Notes under the pieces: model-generated | Seen by the model: the letters and a program-made list of their open reading frames with translations, nothing else | Databases searched by the model: none | Told to the model about the DNA's origin: nothing | Shown here: in pieces, positions 1,740 through 57,515 of the stretch | Numbering within the stretch: the stretch's first letter is position 1 | How the letters are laid out: each line of letters opens with the position of its first letter | Translations under genes and position numbers: made by a program | Assembly: GCA_963558245.1 (NCBI GenBank) | Contig: CAUWGA010000001.1 | Coordinates: 14,284-78,283 of the forward strand | DNA: 64,000 bases | Direction: 5' to 3' | Source of the DNA: an uncultured Clostridia bacterium | Lineage (GTDB): Bacteria > Bacillota > Clostridia > TANB77 > CAG-508

Positions 1740-1782
1740 AAAATGTCCACTTTGGACCTGGACTCCGTCCTAATAAGACATT
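1740..1782. repeat. solo terminal-repeat unit of the nested-palindrome MITE family (long-TIR subtype, like copy B)
   Basis: aaaatgtccactttggacctggactccgtcctaataagacatt; about 90% identical to the right TIR of the element at 11392-11434; lies about 25 bp upstream of the start of the 1142..1717 gene. Confidence 0.7.
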
Positions 1783-1842
1783 AGCTGGTGCTCATTATAA
1801 CATATTTTACGTGTTTTTACAAATTTTATGCTATATACTCAA

Positions 1843-10697: not shown

Positions 10698-11141
10698 ATG
10701 AATACAAAATTAATCGCAAAAAATCCAACTGCATATCATAATTATACTATTCAAGATAGATTAGAAGTTGGAATTGTATTATCTGGTACAGAAATAAAAT
10801 CAATTAGAAGCGGAAAAGTAAACTTAAAAGATACATATGCAACTATAAAAAAAGGAGAAGTTTATATCATAGGTATGCATATTGCTCCATATGAACATGG
10901 AAATATTTTTAACAAAGACCCTTTACGTGATAGAAAACTGCTTTTAAATAAAAGAGAAATTAATAAATTAATTGGTCTAACTAAACAACAAGGATGCACT
11001 TTAGTTCCAATAAGTTTATATTTTAAAGGAAGCTTAGTAAAATTAGAACTTGGAATTGGAAAAGGAAAAAAATTATACGATAAACGACAAGATATTGCCA
11101 AAAAAGATGCTCAAAGACAAATTGCTCGTAGTCTAAAATAA
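10698..11141 (+). CDS. smpB: SsrA-binding protein SmpB
   Basis: 147 aa; conserved SmpB regions ([37 protein letters not shown]) and a basic C-terminal tail. Confidence 0.95.
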
Positions 11142-11434
11142 TGTCCGATTAGGACGGGATCCAGGTCCAAAGTGGACATTTTGGAAATATTATATAAATT
11201 AATATATAACTTATACCTGCTCTTATAAAAAACTCTAGTATATAATAAAAAATACTGCATAAGTGCCTAAACAAGCCAAATATCGGCGAGTGTAACTTGA
11301 ATAACCTACATAAAATTCAATTATGTGGTTGCTATACACAAAGTATTTTTTATTATATACTAGAGTTTTATTAAAAATAACATAATTTTACAAAATGTCC
11401 ACTTTGGACCTGGATCCCATCCTAATCGGACATT
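11140..11434. mobile_element. full-length nested-palindrome MITE-like element (copy B; 295 bp; 43-bp TIRs, 28-bp perfect inner IR, 85-bp core)
   Basis: left TIR aatgtccgattaggacgggatccaggtccaaagtggacatttt matches the right TIR in reverse complement with one mismatch; inner IR aaaactctagtatataataaaaaatact (11227-11256) pairs with agtattttttattatatactagagtttt (11342-11369); core 11257-11341; ends overlap the smpB and fba stop codons. Confidence 0.85.
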
Positions 11435-22883: not shown

Positions 22884-23046
22884 AATGTCCAATTGGGGTC
22901 AGGTCCAAAGTGGACATTTTCTGTGATTATAAATAAAACTCGAGTATATAGTATAAAGCATTTTTTATAATATATACTCGAGTTTCTTATTATAATAAAT
23001 ATATTTTGTAAAATGTCCACTTTGGACCTGACCCCAATTGGACATT
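22884..23046. mobile_element. nested-palindrome MITE-like element (copy C; 163 bp; 37-bp TIRs, inner IR, no core)
   Basis: aatgtccaattggggtcaggtccaaagtggacatttt ... aaaatgtccactttggacctgaccccaattggacatt; inner IR aaaactcgagtatata / tatatactcgagttt; lies between the start of the SBP gene and the spoVS stop. Confidence 0.85.
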
Positions 23047-24405: not shown

Positions 24406-24508
24406 ACTAAATTCCTTCTTTCTATATTTATTCTTCTTTTAAACTCTATAATCAATTTCTATGATACTATAAAATCATATTAGTGTCAAATTATAAAAAT
24501 TCTTAAAT

Positions 24509-24603
24509 CATGTGGCTACGACACACAAAGTATTTTTATATTATATACTTGAGTTTTATAAATAATATAATTTTCCAGAATGGCCACTTAAAAAATGTCC
24601 CCC
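24509..24603. repeat. decayed right-half remnant of a copy-B-type MITE (core 3' end plus inner IR plus degenerate TIR)
   Basis: atgtggctacgacacacaaagtatttttatattatatacttgagtttt aligns with copy B 11323-11369; followed by a degenerate agaatggccactt...aaaaaatgtccccc. Confidence 0.6.
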
Positions 24604-31171: not shown

Positions 31172-31209
31172 CTTGTCTTATTGGGGACAGGTCCAAAGTG
31201 GACATTTTC
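31172..31209. repeat. solo, partly decayed MITE terminal-repeat unit directly upstream of the ileS RBS
   Basis: cttgtcttattggggacaggtccaaagtggacatttt; the AGGAGG RBS of ileS abuts or overlaps the unit. Confidence 0.65.
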
Positions 31210-31993: not shown

Positions 31994-32725
31994 TTATACA
32001 AATGATAGTGTTCCTTTTTCAAATCTATCTTTCCAGTTTTCTAATTCTTTTATCTTTATTCCATGTAAATTTAATGTCATTTTTTGTAATTTTAATTCTT
32101 TTGTTATTTCTTTATATTGTATATCTCTAGCTAACTCACTAGCATGTATCTTTTCAAAATTAATGTCCATATAATTTTTAATTTCTGAAAAACTCTCTGT
32201 AATGCTTTTGTCCATTGTTTGCAATATCTCTATTACGCCAAATCGGTCTTCTTTTCGACCTTTTTCTAATCTCATTATGCCTTCTGTATTTTCTTTTGTT
32301 GCTTTTTCCAAACTTACTATTCTTTCTGTATTTTCTTCTGTTGCTTTTTCCAAGCCTACTATCCTTTTTGTATTTTCTTGCGTTGCTTTTTCCAAGCCTA
32401 CTATCCTTTTTGTATTTTCTTGCGTTGCTTTTTCCAAGCCTACTATCCTTTTTGTATTTTCTTGCGTTGCTCTCTTTAGTTCATTAGTTTCATTTCTTAA
32501 TTCTTTCGTAGTTTCTTCCAAAGCAATTATTCTTTCTGTGTTTTCTTTAGTTGTCTCTCTTAGTTCCTGTATAGCTACTGTGTGTTCGTCTGTTTTCTTA
32601 TGTAACTCTCCTATTTCTTGTTGTAATGTTACAACTTGTGTTTCTAATCCATTAAACCTTGAATTAGTTTCCGTTCTAAACGCTCTTAGTTCTTTTAGAA
32701 CAACTGCGGTCATTTCATCTGACAT
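31994..32725 (-). CDS. coiled-coil protein with tandem 14-aa repeats (hypothetical)
   Basis: 243 aa; predicted all-helical; repeats KRIVGLEKATQENT in about 6 copies; heptad-like pattern throughout. Confidence 0.6.
   Translation of the reverse strand: MSDEMTAVVLKELRAFRTETNSRFNGLETQVVTLQQEIGELHKKTDEHTVAIQELRETTKENTERIIALEETTKELRNETNELKRATQENTKRIVGLEKATQENTKRIVGLEKATQENTKRIVGLEKATEENTERIVSLEKATKENTEGIMRLEKGRKEDRFGVIEILQTMDKSITESFSEIKNYMDINFEKIHASELARDIQYKEITKELKLQKMTLNLHGIKIKELENWKDRFEKGTLSFV
32283..32480. repeat. 42-bp tandem repeat (about 4.7 copies; last two full copies identical) inside the coiled-coil gene
   Basis: unit ttttgtattttcttgcgttgctttttccaagcctactatcct; encodes the 14-aa KRIVGLEKATQENT repeat on the minus strand. 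Confidence 0.85.
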
Positions 32726-32883: not shown

Positions 32884-34101
32884 TTACTGAATATTTGCTA
32901 ATCTTTCTGTCTCTTTAGCTATCATTAATTCTTCATTTGTAGGTATTACATAAACCTTAATTTTAGAATTTTCAGTTGAAATAGCTTTTTCTTCTCCTCT
33001 CATATTATTAGCATCAATGTCTAAATCTACTCCCATAAATTTAAGTTTTTCACAAATTCCTTTTCTTATATTAATTTGATTTTCTCCTATTCCTCCAGTA
33101 AATATAATATAATCTAAACCATCCATTTCAGCTGCATATTTTGCAACATCACCTGCTATTGCATATTCAAAACTTTCTATTGCAATTTTAGCTCTTTCAT
33201 TTCCTTCATTTGATGCTTCTTCAATTACTCTAAAATCTGGTGCTAAACCTGATATTCCAGAAACACCTGATTTTTTATTTAATAAATCTTCCATTTCTTG
33301 AGCTGTTAATTTTTCTTTTTTCATTAAATATGTTAAAACTGATGGATCTAAGTCTCCACTTCTTGTAACCATTGGAATTCCTCCTAGTGGTGTTAATCCC
33401 ATGCTTGTATCTATTGATTTTCCTCCATCAACAGCACATATACTTGATCCTTGACCTAAGTGGCATGTAACTATTTTTAAGTCTTTTATATCTTTTTCTT
33501 CTATTTGAGCTAATCTTTGTGAAACATACATATGAGATGTTCCGTGTGCTCCATATTTTCTTACACCATATTTTTTGTAAAATTCATATGGTATTGCATA
33601 AATATATTTGTCTTTAGGCATTGTTTGATGAAAAGTTGTATCAAAAACTGCTACCATTGGTTTTCCAGGCATCACATTTTTACATGCTTCCATTCCTAAA
33701 ATAGATGCTGGGTTATGTAATGGAGCAAATTCACTACATTCATCTATTTGTGTCATAACCTTATCATTTATTAATGCTGATTCTTTAAATATTTCTCCTC
33801 CATGTACTACTCTATGTCCTATTGCATCTATTTCATCTAAGTTATCTATTACTTTGTATTCTGGATTTGTAAATTGAGCAAGTGTAAATTCAATAGCCTC
33901 TTTGTGATTATATGCAGGTTTTTTTATTTCTGTTTTTTTACCATTTGCTTTATGAGTAATAAAAGCTTCTTCTTCTCCTATTCTTTCATATTTACCAGAA
34001 GCTAGTACTTCTTCAGTTTGCATATTTATTAATTGATATTTTAATGATGAACTTCCACAGTTTAATACTAATATTTTCATTATTATTCCTCCTCTATACA
34101 T
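32884..34101 (-). CDS. ackA: acetate kinase (paralog 1)
   Basis: 405 aa; KILVLNCGSSSLKYQL N-terminus and AckA/propionate kinase signatures (HGTSH, IVTCHLGQGSSI). Confidence 0.9.
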   Translation of the reverse strand: MYRGGIIMKILVLNCGSSSLKYQLINMQTEEVLASGKYERIGEEEAFITHKANGKKTEIKKPAYNHKEAIEFTLAQFTNPEYKVIDNLDEIDAIGHRVVHGGEIFKESALINDKVMTQIDECSEFAPLHNPASILGMEACKNVMPGKPMVAVFDTTFHQTMPKDKYIYAIPYEFYKKYGVRKYGAHGTSHMYVSQRLAQIEEKDIKDLKIVTCHLGQGSSICAVDGGKSIDTSMGLTPLGGIPMVTRSGDLDPSVLTYLMKKEKLTAQEMEDLLNKKSGVSGISGLAPDFRVIEEASNEGNERAKIAIESFEYAIAGDVAKYAAEMDGLDYIIFTGGIGENQINIRKGICEKLKFMGVDLDIDANNMRGEEKAISTENSKIKVYVIPTNEELMIAKETERLANIQ

Positions 34102-35291
34102 TTTTTAGTTTCTCTAGCAATCATTAATTCTTCATTTGTAGGTATTACATAAACTGGCATACTAGAATCTTCCGCTGATACTTTTGCTTCGTCTCCTTTT
34201 ATTGCTTGATTTTGTACTTCATCAAGTTTTATTCCAAAATATTTTAATCTATTACAGATCTCTTGTCTAGAATCTTGACCTTTCTCTCCTACTCCTGCTG
34301 TAAATGTAATTACATCGGCTCCTCCCATTGCAACCATATATTTTGCAACATATGATGCAACAGTATCATGGAAAATATCTAATGCTAATTGAGCATGTTT
34401 TCCACCAGAAGCTGCATCTACTTCTATATCTCTAAAATCAACAGATACTCCTGAAATTCCATATACTCCTGATTCTTTATTTAATATACTTTCTATTTCT
34501 CTTGCATTAAGCTCATGTTTTTGCATTATATATGTTACTACTGATGGGTCTAAATCTCCACTTCTTGTCCCCATAACTATTCCTCCAAGTGGTGTTAATC
34601 CCATACTTGTTTCTACAGATTTACCATTTTGGATTGCACATATACTTCCCCCTTGACCTAAATGACAGTTTATAATTTTTAGATCTTTTATATCTTTTCC
34701 CATTAGTTCTGCTACTCTATATGCAACATATTTATGTGAAGTTCCATGGAATCCATATTTTCTAATACCATATTTTTCATAATATTCATATGGTATAGGA
34801 TATAAATATCTTTCCTTTGGAATTGTTTGATGAAATGCTGTATCAAAAACAGCTACCATTTTCATATTTGGAACAACTTTTCTACATGCTTCTATTCCTA
34901 AAAGTACAGCAGGATTATGAATAGGTGCTAGTTCACTACATTCTTTCATTATATTTATAACATTATCATCTATAATAACTGAATCAGAAATTTTCTCTCC
35001 TCCGTGAACTGCTCTATGTCCTATTCCCATTAATTCATCCAAACTTTTTATAACTCCATAATGGTCATTTGTTAATCTTTTTAAAACAAATCTAATTGCT
35101 TCTTCATGGTTTGCTACTCTTACTTCAAATTTATGTTTTACGCCATTAACTTTATGTGTTAAAAAAGAATTTGCTTGACCAATTCTTTCAAAGTTACCTT
35201 TAGCTAATTGTTGTTCTGTATCCATATCTATAACTTGATATTTAAGTGTTGAACTTCCTGAATTTAATACTAAAATTTTCATATTTACCAT
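34083..35291 (-). CDS. acetate/propionate kinase (paralog 2, tandem duplicate)
   Basis: 402 aa; KILVLNSGSSTLKYQV, HGTSH, IINCHLGQGGSI; about 55-60% identical to the downstream paralog; overlaps it by 19 nt. Confidence 0.85.
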   Translation of the reverse strand: MVNMKILVLNSGSSTLKYQVIDMDTEQQLAKGNFERIGQANSFLTHKVNGVKHKFEVRVANHEEAIRFVLKRLTNDHYGVIKSLDELMGIGHRAVHGGEKISDSVIIDDNVINIMKECSELAPIHNPAVLLGIEACRKVVPNMKMVAVFDTAFHQTIPKERYLYPIPYEYYEKYGIRKYGFHGTSHKYVAYRVAELMGKDIKDLKIINCHLGQGGSICAIQNGKSVETSMGLTPLGGIVMGTRSGDLDPSVVTYIMQKHELNAREIESILNKESGVYGISGVSVDFRDIEVDAASGGKHAQLALDIFHDTVASYVAKYMVAMGGADVITFTAGVGEKGQDSRQEICNRLKYFGIKLDEVQNQAIKGDEAKVSAEDSSMPVYVIPTNEELMIARETKKCIEEE

Positions 35292-35307: not shown

Positions 35308-35402
35308 GATGTCCTATTGGGGACAGGTCCAAAATGGACATTCTATTTTTTGATTATATGCTTTGCTAAATGTCCACTTTGGACCTGTCCCCAATTAGAC
35401 AT
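35308..35402. mobile_element. minimal nested-palindrome MITE-like element (copy F; 95 bp) inside the pta-ackA operon
   Basis: gatgtcctattggggacaggtccaaaatggacatt ... aaatgtccactttggacctgtccccaattagacat; lies between the pta stop (35405) and the RBS of ackA paralog 2. Confidence 0.85.
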
Positions 35403-35404
35403 AA

Positions 35405-49645: not shown

Positions 49646-50296
49646 TTGAAAGTGGTAATTTTTATGAACTTAAGTTTTGATTTTGAAAATTTCATACAAG
49701 AATTTGCCAATACTTGTAGTAAAGTTGAAAAAAAAGTTTTTTTAAAAGATGAAGTTATTACTTCATATATAGAAAAACGAAATCAGTTTTGTATTTTAAT
49801 ACATGGCAATGCTGATTTAGTTCGTTATGATTCAAATGGTAATAGAACAATAGTAGAACATTTTTCTAATAATGATATTTTTGGTGAATTATTTTATGAT
49901 ATTATTACTAATAATGAATTATTTGTTGAAGCTAAAGAAAAATGTGAAGTACTTTTTTATATTTATGACTGTATTCATGTAAAATGTAAACATAATTGCA
50001 AGTTCCATCAAAAACTTACAGAATATTTACCGGAACTTATTTTGTTAAAAATAATGAATTTAAATACACGAATTGAATTATTAACTAAACGTTCCACTCG
50101 TGACAAATTAATTACTTATTTTACATCTCTTTCCAAAAAATCTTTTAGCAAGTCTTTTAAACTTTCTTTGTCTTTAACAGACTTAGCCGATTATCTAGGA
50201 GTTGATAGAAGTGCAATGATGAGGGAATTAAAACTATTAAAAGAAGATGGTTTTATTCAAAAAGACGGAAATAGAATTACTTTATTATATAAATAA
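49646..50296 (+). CDS. Crp/Fnr-family transcriptional regulator
   Basis: 216 aa; N-terminal cNMP-binding-like beta-roll; C-terminal HTH (LSLTDLADYLGVDRSAMMRELKLLKEDGFI); stop codon overlaps the MITE terminus. Confidence 0.8.
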   Translation: MKVVIFMNLSFDFENFIQEFANTCSKVEKKVFLKDEVITSYIEKRNQFCILIHGNADLVRYDSNGNRTIVEHFSNNDIFGELFYDIITNNELFVEAKEKCEVLFYIYDCIHVKCKHNCKFHQKLTEYLPELILLKIMNLNTRIELLTKRSTRDKLITYFTSLSKKSFSKSFKLSLSLTDLADYLGVDRSAMMRELKLLKEDGFIQKDGNRITLLYK

Positions 50297-50537
50297 TGTC
50301 CAGTTAGGGTCAGGTCCAAAGTGGACATTTTATATGACTATAAACCTCAAAGATATATAATAAAAAATACTTTGTGTGTCGCAACCAGATGATTAAATTC
50401 TTGAAGGTTGCTCCAATCGCACTCACTTCGTTCGTTTGGTCGCTTACGCAGTATTTTTTATTATATATCTTTGAGGTTTTTAATAATAACATAATTTTCC
50501 CAAATGTCCACTTTGGACCTGACCCTAATTGGACATT
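50295..50537. mobile_element. full-length nested-palindrome MITE-like element (copy G; 243 bp; 37-bp TIRs, 30-bp inner IR, 78-bp core in opposite orientation to copy B)
   Basis: aatgtccagttagggtcaggtccaaagtggacatttt ... aaatgtccactttggacctgaccctaattggacatt; inner IR aaacctcaaagatatataataaaaaatact (50342-50371) / agtattttttattatatatctttgaggttt (50450-50479); core 50372-50449; overlaps the stops of the crp-like gene and hisS. Confidence 0.85.
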
Positions 50538-51819
50538 AAAATTCTATTTTTTGTTCTTCTCCTGTGTCCATATTTTTTAGTGTATATTTTCTTGTTTGTA
50601 TTTCATCTTCTCCTATTACTATAACATATGGTATTTCCAGTTTATCTGCATATTTAAATTTTGCTTTTAGCTTTTTATTGTTTAAATATATTTCTGTGTT
50701 TGTGCCTTCTTTTCTTAATTTATTAGCTATTTGAATTGGTACAGTTAAATCTTCTGTCATTGGAATTATTAGTACATCTGCTACTGATTTTTTGTCTGCT
50801 TTTATTAAGTTCATTTCATTTAATTTGTAGAATAATCTTGTAAGTCCTATTGATATTCCTACTCCTGGTAATTTTTTATCAGTATAATATTCTGCTAGGT
50901 TTTCGTACCTTCCTCCTGAACATACACTTCCAAGTTCCCTGTAATCATTGAAAAATGTTTCATAAACTGTTCCTGTATAATAGTCTAATCCACGAGCTAT
51001 CGTTAAATCTACATTAAAATTGTTTTCTGGAATTTCAAATATTCTCATATGTTTTACAACATATTCTAATTCTTCTACACCTTTTTTAAATGTTTCGTTT
51101 TCAATCCCTAGTCCTTTTAGTTTTTCAATTTTTTCATCTGAACTTCCGCTAATACTAATAAAATTCATTATTTTATTAATAGCACTTTTTTCAATTTCTA
51201 TTTTTAATAGTTCTTCTATTACTTCATCTTTTCCTATTTTGTCTATTTTATCTATTATTCTTAAAATATCTGTTGCTTTTTCTTTTTGATTTAAATCTTC
51301 AAATAAACCATTTAATATTTTTCTATTATTTAATCTTATTGTAAAATTAGAAAATCCCAATTTAGTAAATATTGTGTAAATTACGCTTGGAATTTCTGCA
51401 TCATTAATTAAATCCAGTTCTCCATCTCCAATAACGTCAATATCACATTGATAAAATTCGCGAAATCTTCCTTTTTGTGTTCTTTCTCCACGATATACTT
51501 TTCCTATTTGATATCTTCTAAATGGGAAATTCAAGTTTCCATAATTTTTAGCTACATATTTTGAAAGTGGTACAGTTAAATCAAATCTTAATGATAAGTC
51601 ATTATCTCCTTTATTAAATCTATAAATTTGTTTTTCTGTTTCTCCTCCAGCTTTTGCAAGTAATACTTCTGACAATTCTATTACTGGAGTATCTAAAGGT
51701 AAAAATCCAAATTTTTGGTATGTTTCTTCTATTACTTTTTTCATTTGATTAAATAAAATTTGTTCATTTGGTAATAATTCCATAAATCCTGATAATGTTC
51801 TTGGTTCTGTTTTAGCCAT
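50536..51819 (-). CDS. hisS: histidine--tRNA ligase
   Basis: 427 aa; class II motifs (FRYQIGKVYRGE, motif 3 GGRYENL) and a C-terminal anticodon-binding domain. Confidence 0.88.
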   Translation of the reverse strand: MAKTEPRTLSGFMELLPNEQILFNQMKKVIEETYQKFGFLPLDTPVIELSEVLLAKAGGETEKQIYRFNKGDNDLSLRFDLTVPLSKYVAKNYGNLNFPFRRYQIGKVYRGERTQKGRFREFYQCDIDVIGDGELDLINDAEIPSVIYTIFTKLGFSNFTIRLNNRKILNGLFEDLNQKEKATDILRIIDKIDKIGKDEVIEELLKIEIEKSAINKIMNFISISGSSDEKIEKLKGLGIENETFKKGVEELEYVVKHMRIFEIPENNFNVDLTIARGLDYYTGTVYETFFNDYRELGSVCSGGRYENLAEYYTDKKLPGVGISIGLTRLFYKLNEMNLIKADKKSVADVLIIPMTEDLTVPIQIANKLRKEGTNTEIYLNNKKLKAKFKYADKLEIPYVIVIGEDEIQTRKYTLKNMDTGEEQKIEF

Positions 51820-57383: not shown

Positions 57384-57515
57384 AATGTCCTTTTGGGGAC
57401 AGGTCCAAAGTGGACATTTTGGAAAATTATGTTATTTTTAAATATCAAACTTAATTTTTTGCACTTATATACACCCTAAAAATGTCCACTTTGGACCTGT
57501 CCCCAAATAGGCATT
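57384..57515. mobile_element. nested-palindrome MITE-like element (copy H; 132 bp) between the fabI RBS and the 3' end of accA; its right TIR is translated as the AccA C-terminus
   Basis: aatgtccttttggggacaggtccaaagtggacatttt ... aaaatgtccactttggacctgtccccaaataggcatt; the reverse complement of the right unit reads ATG CCT ATT TGG GGA CAG GTC CAA AGT GGA CAT TTT TAG, i.e. [12 protein letters not shown] plus stop. Confidence 0.85.

Follow-up and report, generated by a model that had tools for sequence, protein, structure and literature searches.

A conserved core module with a predicted fold at the centre of fold-back repeats from uncultured gut bacteria

MITEs usually combine conserved ends with a disposable middle. 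The 64,000-nt stretch of DNA from an uncultured Clostridia bacterium that was analysed here (henceforth the window; 26% GC) hosts a family of small palindromic repeats, two long copies of which, B and G, hold a less AT-rich core between their inner inverted repeats, and this raises the question of what such a core is and what it might do. A sequence-only reading had offered two answers, namely a small-RNA cargo, or an invertible or recombinogenic segment. The object turns out to be larger than that reading had it: it is a conserved and apparently covarying module at the heart of fold-back repeats, the role of which we infer from patterns in its sequence. In these elements it is the compact, structured middle that is conserved while the ends drift. 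With moderate confidence we propose that cores B and G are two copies of a conserved module with a predicted structure, which forms the non-palindromic apex of fold-back MITE-like elements and works as an RNA. If so, uncultured gut bacteria would have yielded a new class of structured RNA that is linked to a mobile element, and the role of this RNA in the spread of that element would be directly testable.

The palindromic repeats of the window

Word counts and a repeat search recovered seven copies or remnants of the element and two solo outer TIRs in the window (Table 1); the word GTCCAAAGTGGACAT, which is part of the outer TIRs, occurs 12 times against an expectation of 0.06 (15-mer count). 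On re-reading, the coordinates and sequences that had been given for the two cores proved correct, as did the perfect 28-bp inner inverted repeat around core B. The cores resemble each other only when one of them is reverse-complemented (67% identity, where ~65% had been estimated, versus 52% on the same strand), and the same relation was returned independently by the repeat search of the window. Their GC content (0.35 in B and 0.46 in G) exceeds that of the remainder of each element (0.27-0.29) and of the window (0.26), as the description of the cores as less AT-rich had implied. Matches to the core covariance model in the window are confined to G (50360-50461, minus strand, 109 bits, E-value 1.8e-23) and B (11245-11353, plus strand, 79 bits). 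In core B several conserved pairs are broken, with GAGCAACC changed to GAATAACC and GCGACACACAA to GCTATACACAA; likewise, the GCAACC...GGTTGC hairpin that had been ascribed to both cores is present in G and in every related copy, but is degraded to AACC...GGTT in B. Remnant D does retain the end of the core, ~23 nt of it, in the arrangement of B.

Table 1. Coordinates of the repeat copies and their parts in the window
Feature	Position	Strand	Remarks
Core G	50372-50449	-	minus-strand reading 5'-GCGTAAGCGACCAAACGAACGAAGTGAGTGCGATTGGAGCAACC..GGTTGCGACACACAA; canonical, near-identical to family consensus
Inner arm of G	50333-50371		39 nt, 92% complementary to 50450-50488
Inner arm of G, partner	50450-50488		pairs with 50333-50371
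Outer TIR of G	50294-50330		37 nt, 97% complementary to 50502-50538
Outer TIR of G, partner	50502-50538		pairs with 50294-50330
Interior of element G	50330-50503		found in the opposite orientation at the same site in related strains and the related MAG
Core B	11257-11341	+	decaying copy of the core-G module
Left inner arm of B	11229-11256		perfect 28-bp inverted repeat with 11342-11369; TATAAT box 10 nt ahead of core
Right inner arm of B	11342-11369		pairs with 11229-11256
Outer TIR of B	11140-11187		48 nt, 96% complementary to 11387-11434
Outer TIR of B, partner	11387-11434		pairs with 11140-11187
Copy C	22884-23046		short, coreless; both inner-arm ends and ..TATAAAGCATTTTTT (homologous to the core-end/arm junction)
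Remnant D	24506-24603	+	last ~23 nt of core (to 24528), right inner arm, scaffold, degenerate TIR
Copy F	35309-35403		short; right inner arm remnant only (TATTTTTTGATTATATGCTTTG), read directly against the G sequence
Copy H	57384-57515		short in the window; orthologous MAG site (L002) is a long form with intact core
Solo outer TIR	1740-1783		word count and repeat search
Solo outer TIR	31173-31206		word count and repeat search

Since each of them retains inner-arm or core-end pieces, the short copies of the window (C, D, F and H) and a further one in the locus L011 are deletion derivatives of a core-bearing ancestor. The converse scenario, in which a core was inserted into an empty palindrome, was rejected, as no empty site was found and every short copy contains remnants of the module. 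In the ancestral form of the whole family, the core lay at the centre of the element. The proposal of a small-RNA cargo hence survives to the extent that there is a deeply conserved, covarying module with a predicted structure, as would be expected of an RNA gene, and fails to the extent that this module is not the cargo of a few copies.

Distribution, scaffolds and arms of the module

A scan for the junction of core end and arm through one genome per species recovered 10 copies, all of them in a single MAG ("Clostridia bacterium HGM13654") that is about 88-94% identical to the window over 16 kb; a regular-expression pass over the loci of this MAG added two, bringing its core-bearing copies to 12. 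A metagenome scan with a core-internal pattern yielded 46 loci from human, marmot, shrew and other gut samples, among which diverged copies are under-sampled because the pattern fixed 23 bases. The core covariance model, which was built from 34 copies, gave 62 matches in 444 kb of related loci, with E-values from 1e-8 to 1e-25. All core-bearing loci have a GC content of 25-33%, and orthologous proteins encoded on the core-bearing contigs are often only 60-90% identical, indicating that several species or genera carry the module.

The module appears to be undescribed, being absent from Rfam 15 and from the searchable literature. The Rfam scan that the sequence-only reading had suggested gave no Rfam 15 match at the gathering score in the window; at E<=1, 14 loci comprising canonical, long-form and extended copies likewise gave no real match, the two chance hits to miRNA-precursor hairpins lying far below the cut-offs. 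Nothing relevant was recovered from plasmids and phages (blastn of the consensus core) or from viral contigs (pattern scan), and literature searches by core and TIR sequence strings and by topic found no description. ARAGORN predicted no tRNA or tmRNA gene in the window, where B lies directly after smpB. A protein-coding core is ruled out by stop codons and by indels that are not multiples of three.

The elements display the generic features of MITEs, namely small size (95-300 bp), TIRs (31-107 nt), no coding capacity, dispersed copies, presence or absence at a given site, and target duplications. In many lineages the core with about 31-38 nt of arms stands alone (L003 has three such cores, two of them in tandem with a common arm). 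It also occupies the middle of longer palindromes, whose outer-TIR scaffolds are of at least three unrelated kinds: ATGTCC..GGGGnCAGGTCC in the window, the MAG and L016; TTTAAGTTTCGAC in L013, L015, L020 and L049; and GTTACAGTT in L021 and L031; a different outer TIR is found in L011. Direct repeats flank the outer TIRs of L013 (TATAGTTAAG, 10 bp), L049 (GTTATATTT, 9 bp) and L021 (TTTCTATT, 8 bp); at the window's own copies a clear target duplication is not readable. In L057 (positions 1160-1375) a related outer TIR encloses an unrelated interior, which shows scaffold and module to be separable, and in one orthologous intergenic region the module is present in L046 but missing from L050. All copies lie between genes. 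Set against raw flanking ORFs, they are co-directional in 15 cases and anti-directional in 15, while six sit between convergent and two between divergent ORFs, counts that are not de-duplicated by site. A search for TIR pairs 0.7-4 kb apart, such as an autonomous parent might have, found none in the window or in 71 related loci.

Between arm lineages, the core blocks outside the search-pattern bases are 84-87% identical, as against 48-51% for the adjacent 25 nt of each arm; within a copy, the arms are nearly perfectly complementary (1370 matches versus 106 mismatches and 69 gap positions). Judged by these identities, a conserved core with divergent arms is the reverse of the ordinary MITE pattern, and the elements had aptly been called atypical for simple MITEs.

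The arms are also polar. In 24 of 27 lineages other than that of the window, the arm on the 5' side has TTTTG-N-A 6-8 nt ahead of the core; the other arm has T's only, with the motif in 1/27. In most lineages the G of this motif sits 5-7 nt past a TATATT-like hexamer, and it could mark the point where transcription starts, or else belong to a conserved GNA/AA internal loop in the long stem, of which it would form one side. The lineage of the window is without TTTTG-N-A and has perfect arms, with TATAAT 10 nt ahead of the core. The GNRA loop, the GAA/GAAA loops and three tandem G.A motifs of the core occur on the GCGTAAG strand only, and these strand-limited motifs, taken together with the polar asymmetry of the arms, would speak for one functional strand. 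The counts of G.U versus A.C mismatches favour neither strand (7 versus 8 in the helices and 20 versus 22 in the arms). Elements B and G have more promoter-like and terminator-like matches than shuffled sequences would lead one to expect; -10-like hexamers are expected by chance in AT-rich arms, and most lineages have no terminator 3' of the core.

Predicted fold and compensatory changes

The module is ~80 nt in length, or ~135 nt with an optional extra hairpin (80-140 nt over the whole range), and its edges are sharp, with GCGTAAG... at the start and ...GACACACAA at the end. Three GCGA(C/U) direct repeats are visible in its consensus, 5'-GCGUAAGCGACCAAA-CGA[stem-loop]GAG-UGCGAU-UGGAGCAACC[variable hairpin]GGUUGCGACA-CACAA. 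RNAalifold in combination with manual reading predicts a four-helix fold on the GCGTAAG strand. Its first helix would be a closing stem made of the innermost 5-8 bp of the arms, and its second a GC-GUAA-GC mini-hairpin with a GNRA loop. Hairpin 1 is predicted to consist of a C-G pair, tandem G.A/A.G and 2-4 Watson-Crick pairs below a free loop (UAU, GAA, GAAA and others). Hairpin 2, of the form UG-GA-GCAACC...GGUUGC-GA-CA, would comprise a U-A and a G-C pair, tandem G.A/A.G, the GCAACC/GGUUGC helix and an extension of variable length.

In an alignment that had been fitted to the model, 96.6% of the cells are paired, and 10 pairs have changes on both sides, in 84 cells versus 22.6 cells in shuffles; the covariation score is 0.211, against ~0.03 when the partners are slid, which abolishes the signal. 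Where this covariation falls in the closing stem, it coincides with the inverted repeat of the DNA, and processes acting on the DNA could maintain it. Individual substitutions can also be read directly. For instance, the C-G pair at the base of hairpin 1 is U-A in L016, the tandem G.A pairs are replaced by U-A/A-U in L046, and the inner pair of hairpin 1 is G-C in 31 copies, A-U in 14 and C-G in one, across several arm lineages. Five lineages (L012, L015, L029, L048 and L054) have an extra hairpin domain of ~55 nt after GCGACCA, which has compensatory changes of its own (CCACUGU/ACAGUGG versus UCGCUGU/ACAGCGA, and AAGC/GCUU versus AGGC/GCCU). Compensatory changes among the cores, which the sequence-only reading had named as a check on its proposal, are thus present and are readable as such in L016, L046, L048 and L054. 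As modelled, the core is a conserved secondary structure backed by these changes, and structured RNAs typically show the features predicted for it: a multi-helix junction, an optional inserted domain and numerous unpaired positions that do not vary.

When all column pairs were scanned, no helix or pseudoknot was seen to covary beyond the modelled helices, and an alternative CCAA/UUGG helix was dropped for lack of covariation in the same scan. Folding of B and G alone, as single sequences, did no better than shuffles; canonical copies with the closing stem fold well, about equally on either strand. Several known motifs were set aside. Threading by eye as an HDV-like ribozyme left the required P2 partner and core bases absent. 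The hammerhead core consists of CUGANGA...GAAA around stem II; the flanks of hairpin 1, CAAACGA...GAGUG, share its G.A pairs but miss U4, G5 and A14, and there is no Rfam hammerhead match. A K-turn was rejected since the 3-nt bulge is missing beside the tandem G.A pairs.

Rearrangements and possible modes of action

The interior of the element differs in orientation both between strains and between paralogs. At site G, among contigs with identical HisRS, L058, L060 and L061 have the state of the window and L059 and L062 have the interior flipped; in the MAG (locus L009) the whole interior of G between the outer TIRs is inverted, as in L059 and L062. The alignment score of the G interior is 530 when flipped and 324 when not. 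The two states carry linked SNPs, which marks them as real lineages and not assembly noise, and one event could explain them. When the core is placed against the asymmetric scaffold, it faces one way in G, L001, L002, L004 and L009 and the other way in L006, B, L005 and L008, by a clear margin in L006 (97 versus 73), a small one in B (72.5 versus 67.5) and also smaller ones in L005 and L008. The flip between B and G that had been reported at the outset is therefore real relative to this scaffold, and the opposite facing among paralogs implies that inversion across the inner repeat has happened as well. At site B the long form is present in four strains; in L064, L067, L069 and L071 all that is left of the element is its two outer TIRs, joined at a TCCAAA microhomology.

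The two sites are each flanked by the ends of convergent genes, site G with RelA, an MBL-fold protein, HisRS, a Crp-like regulator and NrdD as neighbours and site B with peroxiredoxin, aldolase and SmpB, and no recombinase or invertase gene is found among the annotated neighbours of either. What holds of the label "invertible or recombinogenic" is the rearrangement itself, as witnessed by in-place inversion at G, inner flips among paralogs and deletions at B and H; a dedicated switch does not follow, there being no recombinase neighbour. Given the convergent gene ends, the lack of a neighbouring recombinase and the sufficiency of one event, generic repeat-mediated rearrangement of an unstable palindrome fits the flips better than a programmed switch. 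These sites provide a clean natural case of between-strain in-place inversion and deletion of palindromic repeats, which matters for the reading of metagenome assemblies.

In-place inversion has also been reported for the Correia elements, MITEs of Neisseria, the transcripts of which form hairpins that are cut by RNase III (PMC10969869). Like the elements described here, these are small, multi-copy and intergenic, with inverted-repeat flanks, promoter-like boxes, and long and short forms that differ by internal deletion. However, Correia elements have conserved TIRs, a core with an IHF site and a TA target, whereas here the TIRs or arms diverge freely, the core is conserved and covaries, and the duplications are of 8-10 bp; host lineage and sequence are unrelated, and the 26-bp TIR and TA target of Correia elements are lacking, as far as a comparison of descriptions (in part that of PMC10969869) rather than of aligned sequences goes. 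QMITE1/2 of Coxiella burnetii (Cbsr3, Cbsr13 and Cbsr16), which have direct repeats, TIRs and a core, give transcripts that were detected as small RNAs (PMC10969869). They too are MITEs with a core, but are species-specific and without reported cross-species conservation or covariation of that core, whereas the present one, known from sequence alone, is conserved and predicted to be structured.

The module might alternatively act as folded single-stranded DNA, that is, as a hairpin or cruciform recognised by its shape by a recombinase, transposase or replication protein, with the side-specific unpaired G-N-A marking the strand in the manner of extrahelical bases in integron attC sites or in the hairpin ends of IS200/IS605. 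We regard this as rather doubtful, even though it would accommodate the free arm sequence with its pairing kept, the conserved asymmetric bulge on one arm only, the missing strand signal in the G.U versus A.C counts, an orientation unrelated to neighbouring genes, the mobility of the element with its target duplications, and the position of the module, which is always central in larger palindromes. GNA/GNRA loops and sheared G.A pairs are, moreover, stable in DNA too. Integron attC sites would then offer a parallel, with their recognition by folded shape, variable paired arms and unpaired conserved bases on one strand; yet attC conserves the base of its stem (R and L boxes) and varies the apex, the opposite of the pattern seen here, and is found in cassette arrays beside an integrase rather than as single dispersed copies between housekeeping genes. 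Direct reading of the arm bases found no GTTRRRY or R''-R' boxes (RYYYAAC...GTTRRRY). What speaks more generally against a single-stranded DNA site is that a multi-helix junction with an optional domain and ~45 near-invariant unpaired bases, as modelled, would be rare for such sites and usual for RNAs, that duplications of 8-10 bp beyond long TIRs suggest that the outer scaffold moved by ordinary cut-and-paste transposition, and that no HUH or integrase gene is seen beside any copy, among the few neighbours annotated.

Were the core a functionless relic of the interior of a parent insertion sequence, its conservation would have to reflect the recent horizontal spread of one MITE. Many individual copies do decay or are deleted, the hosts all resemble one another in their very low GC content and might belong to a single clade, and pattern-based ascertainment favours conserved copies; but the arms of the same copies are ~50% identical when the core is still ~85% identical, two internal hairpins and the optional domain have compensatory changes, and the core lies in at least three unrelated TIR scaffolds, so that we consider this quite unlikely. 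Hairpins of variable length with compensatory changes would also be unexpected of a double-stranded DNA regulatory cassette, in which the MITE would carry protein-binding sites (the three GCGA(C/U) direct repeats), a promoter or a terminator, and copies have no orientation bias to neighbouring genes. Such a cassette thus seems very unlikely, for all that the consensus has its three GCGA repeats, both elements have promoter- and terminator-like matches above shuffled expectation, and Correia elements set a precedent for a carried IHF site and promoters (PMC10969869). The least probable account, to which we give very little credit, is that a site-specific invertase flips the core or the interior and thereby aims an outward-facing promoter (with its -35 box, TTGCGA, in the core and its -10 box in the arm) at either neighbour. 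Site G does occur in both orientations in strains whose HisRS is identical, paralogs differ by inner flips, and an outward promoter-like TTGCGA-16-TATTAT is present at the 3' end of the core in G (TTGCTA-16-TATTAT in B). In this the elements recall the invertons of gut bacteria, inverted-repeat-bounded segments that are found in both orientations (here between strains, at site G); those, however, have a nearby invertase and a promoter driving an adjacent gene, neither of which is seen at sites B and G. Both sites lie between the 3' ends of convergent genes, the neighbours (HisRS, the Crp-like regulator, NrdD, SmpB and aldolase) include no recombinase, the states of site G go with linked SNPs so that one old event is enough, the elements are also deleted at microhomologies, as long palindromes are, and a promoter would leave the covarying internal hairpins unexplained.

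Conserved structured non-coding RNAs that are kept by an element that needs them are known from IS200/IS605 (omega RNA) and IS110 (bridge RNA), and the module resembles them by functional analogy alone. They are 150-250 nt in length, lie beside their nuclease or recombinase gene and belong to elements without long TIRs, whereas here a core of ~80 nt lies between long inverted arms with no adjacent protein gene. PATEs derived from IS200/IS605 lack both TIRs and target duplications, have imperfect hairpins near their ends and are linked to TnpA or TnpB. A derivation of this kind, PATE or omega RNA, is ruled out for the present elements by their long TIRs and target duplications, and no adjacent transposase ORF was seen.

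If the module is an element-encoded structured RNA, the reading that we prefer, it would be transcribed by read-through or from the TATATT-like box in the 5' arm, in the latter case perhaps starting at the side-specific G 6-8 nt ahead of the core. The arms would pair as a long duplex that presents the folded core or allows its excision, and the opposite orientations would result from recombination or template switching between the inner or the outer inverted repeats, with no need of a dedicated invertase. A bolder version, which we put forward tentatively and think unlikely, is that the core is what defines a mobile unit, either as a functional RNA of a new, element-encoded class (a ribozyme or a recruiter of proteins in trans) or as a DNA site recognised by its shape. 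Propagation of that unit would then depend on the conserved apex and any complementary arms and not on sequence-specific terminal repeats, which would explain why the arms are free but paired, why the module takes an exact central position in unrelated scaffolds and why there is an unpaired G-N-A in one arm. On the preferred reading, the core would probably serve the propagation or persistence of the element itself rather than a host function at each site, because consensus copies persist across species while single insertions decay. The decayed copies include B, L027 and L003a, and at site B itself the strains L065 and L070 have a version of the core that is nearer to the consensus.

Terminator-like and promoter-like sites in the outer TIRs

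Examination of the outer TIRs, the terminal inverted repeats enclosing each element, revealed that each of those in the window has GTCCAAAGTGGAC, a small hairpin that resembles a terminator and precedes ATTTT, as well as the -35-like hexamer TGGACA. The occurrence of these sequences in every outer TIR implies that inward-facing terminator-like and promoter-like sites come with every insertion.

Coordinates of the features described in this part
Feature	Sequence	Positions
Terminator-like hairpin (examples)	window	50314-50326; 11397-11409
smpB	window	10698-11141
ORF with tandem repeats (minus strand)	window	31994-32725
42-bp repeats	window	32218-32597
Adjoining similar stretches	window	32901-35287
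Site B with synteny break	L071	2431-2637
Contig end at site G	L063	3785-3810
Modules with bracketed ORF	L003	1930-3455
Bracketed ORF	L003	2312-3016
GC-rich hairpin	L024	~1760-1850
Related TIR with unrelated interior	L057	1160-1375

Breaks at the two element sites

In one strain (L071), which retains only fused outer TIRs at site B, this remnant is followed by different DNA in place of smpB, namely a hairpin rich in GC and the start of another gene, and the break in synteny coincides exactly with the element. At site G, a Logan contig (L063) ends within the outer TIR, an assembly break of the kind expected from a repeated or heterogeneous inverted repeat.

Module arrangements in related contigs

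The module, the hairpin-forming core of these elements, also occurs in other settings. In L003 three stand-alone modules, all in the same orientation and two of them in tandem with one arm in common, flank a possibly disrupted ORF, some 1 kb long, that has no Pfam match; this layout resembles a composite or cassette. Just outside the module of L024, beyond its right arm, lies a perfect GC-rich hairpin, GGGTCGCCGTGGGCGGCGACCC, in an otherwise AT-rich contig. L057 has an unrelated interior with tandem AAAAACTAGGTATGATT units, and the TIR around it (GGGACGTGCCAAATTGGACATTTT) is related to the outer TIR found in the window.

RNA gene searches and other repeats in the window

The entire 64 kb (1-64000) contains smpB, yet neither a tRNA nor a tmRNA was recovered from it, and no Rfam family reached its gathering score. 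Elsewhere in the window, one ORF carries at least seven tandem 42-bp repeats encoding 14-residue protein repeats (..KATQENTKRIVGLE..); its product is coiled-coil-like, with a weak match to DUF16. Further, two adjoining stretches of ~1.2 kb share 70-76% identity, with the offset between them constant at 1199-1202 bp; the pair looks like a tandem gene duplication.
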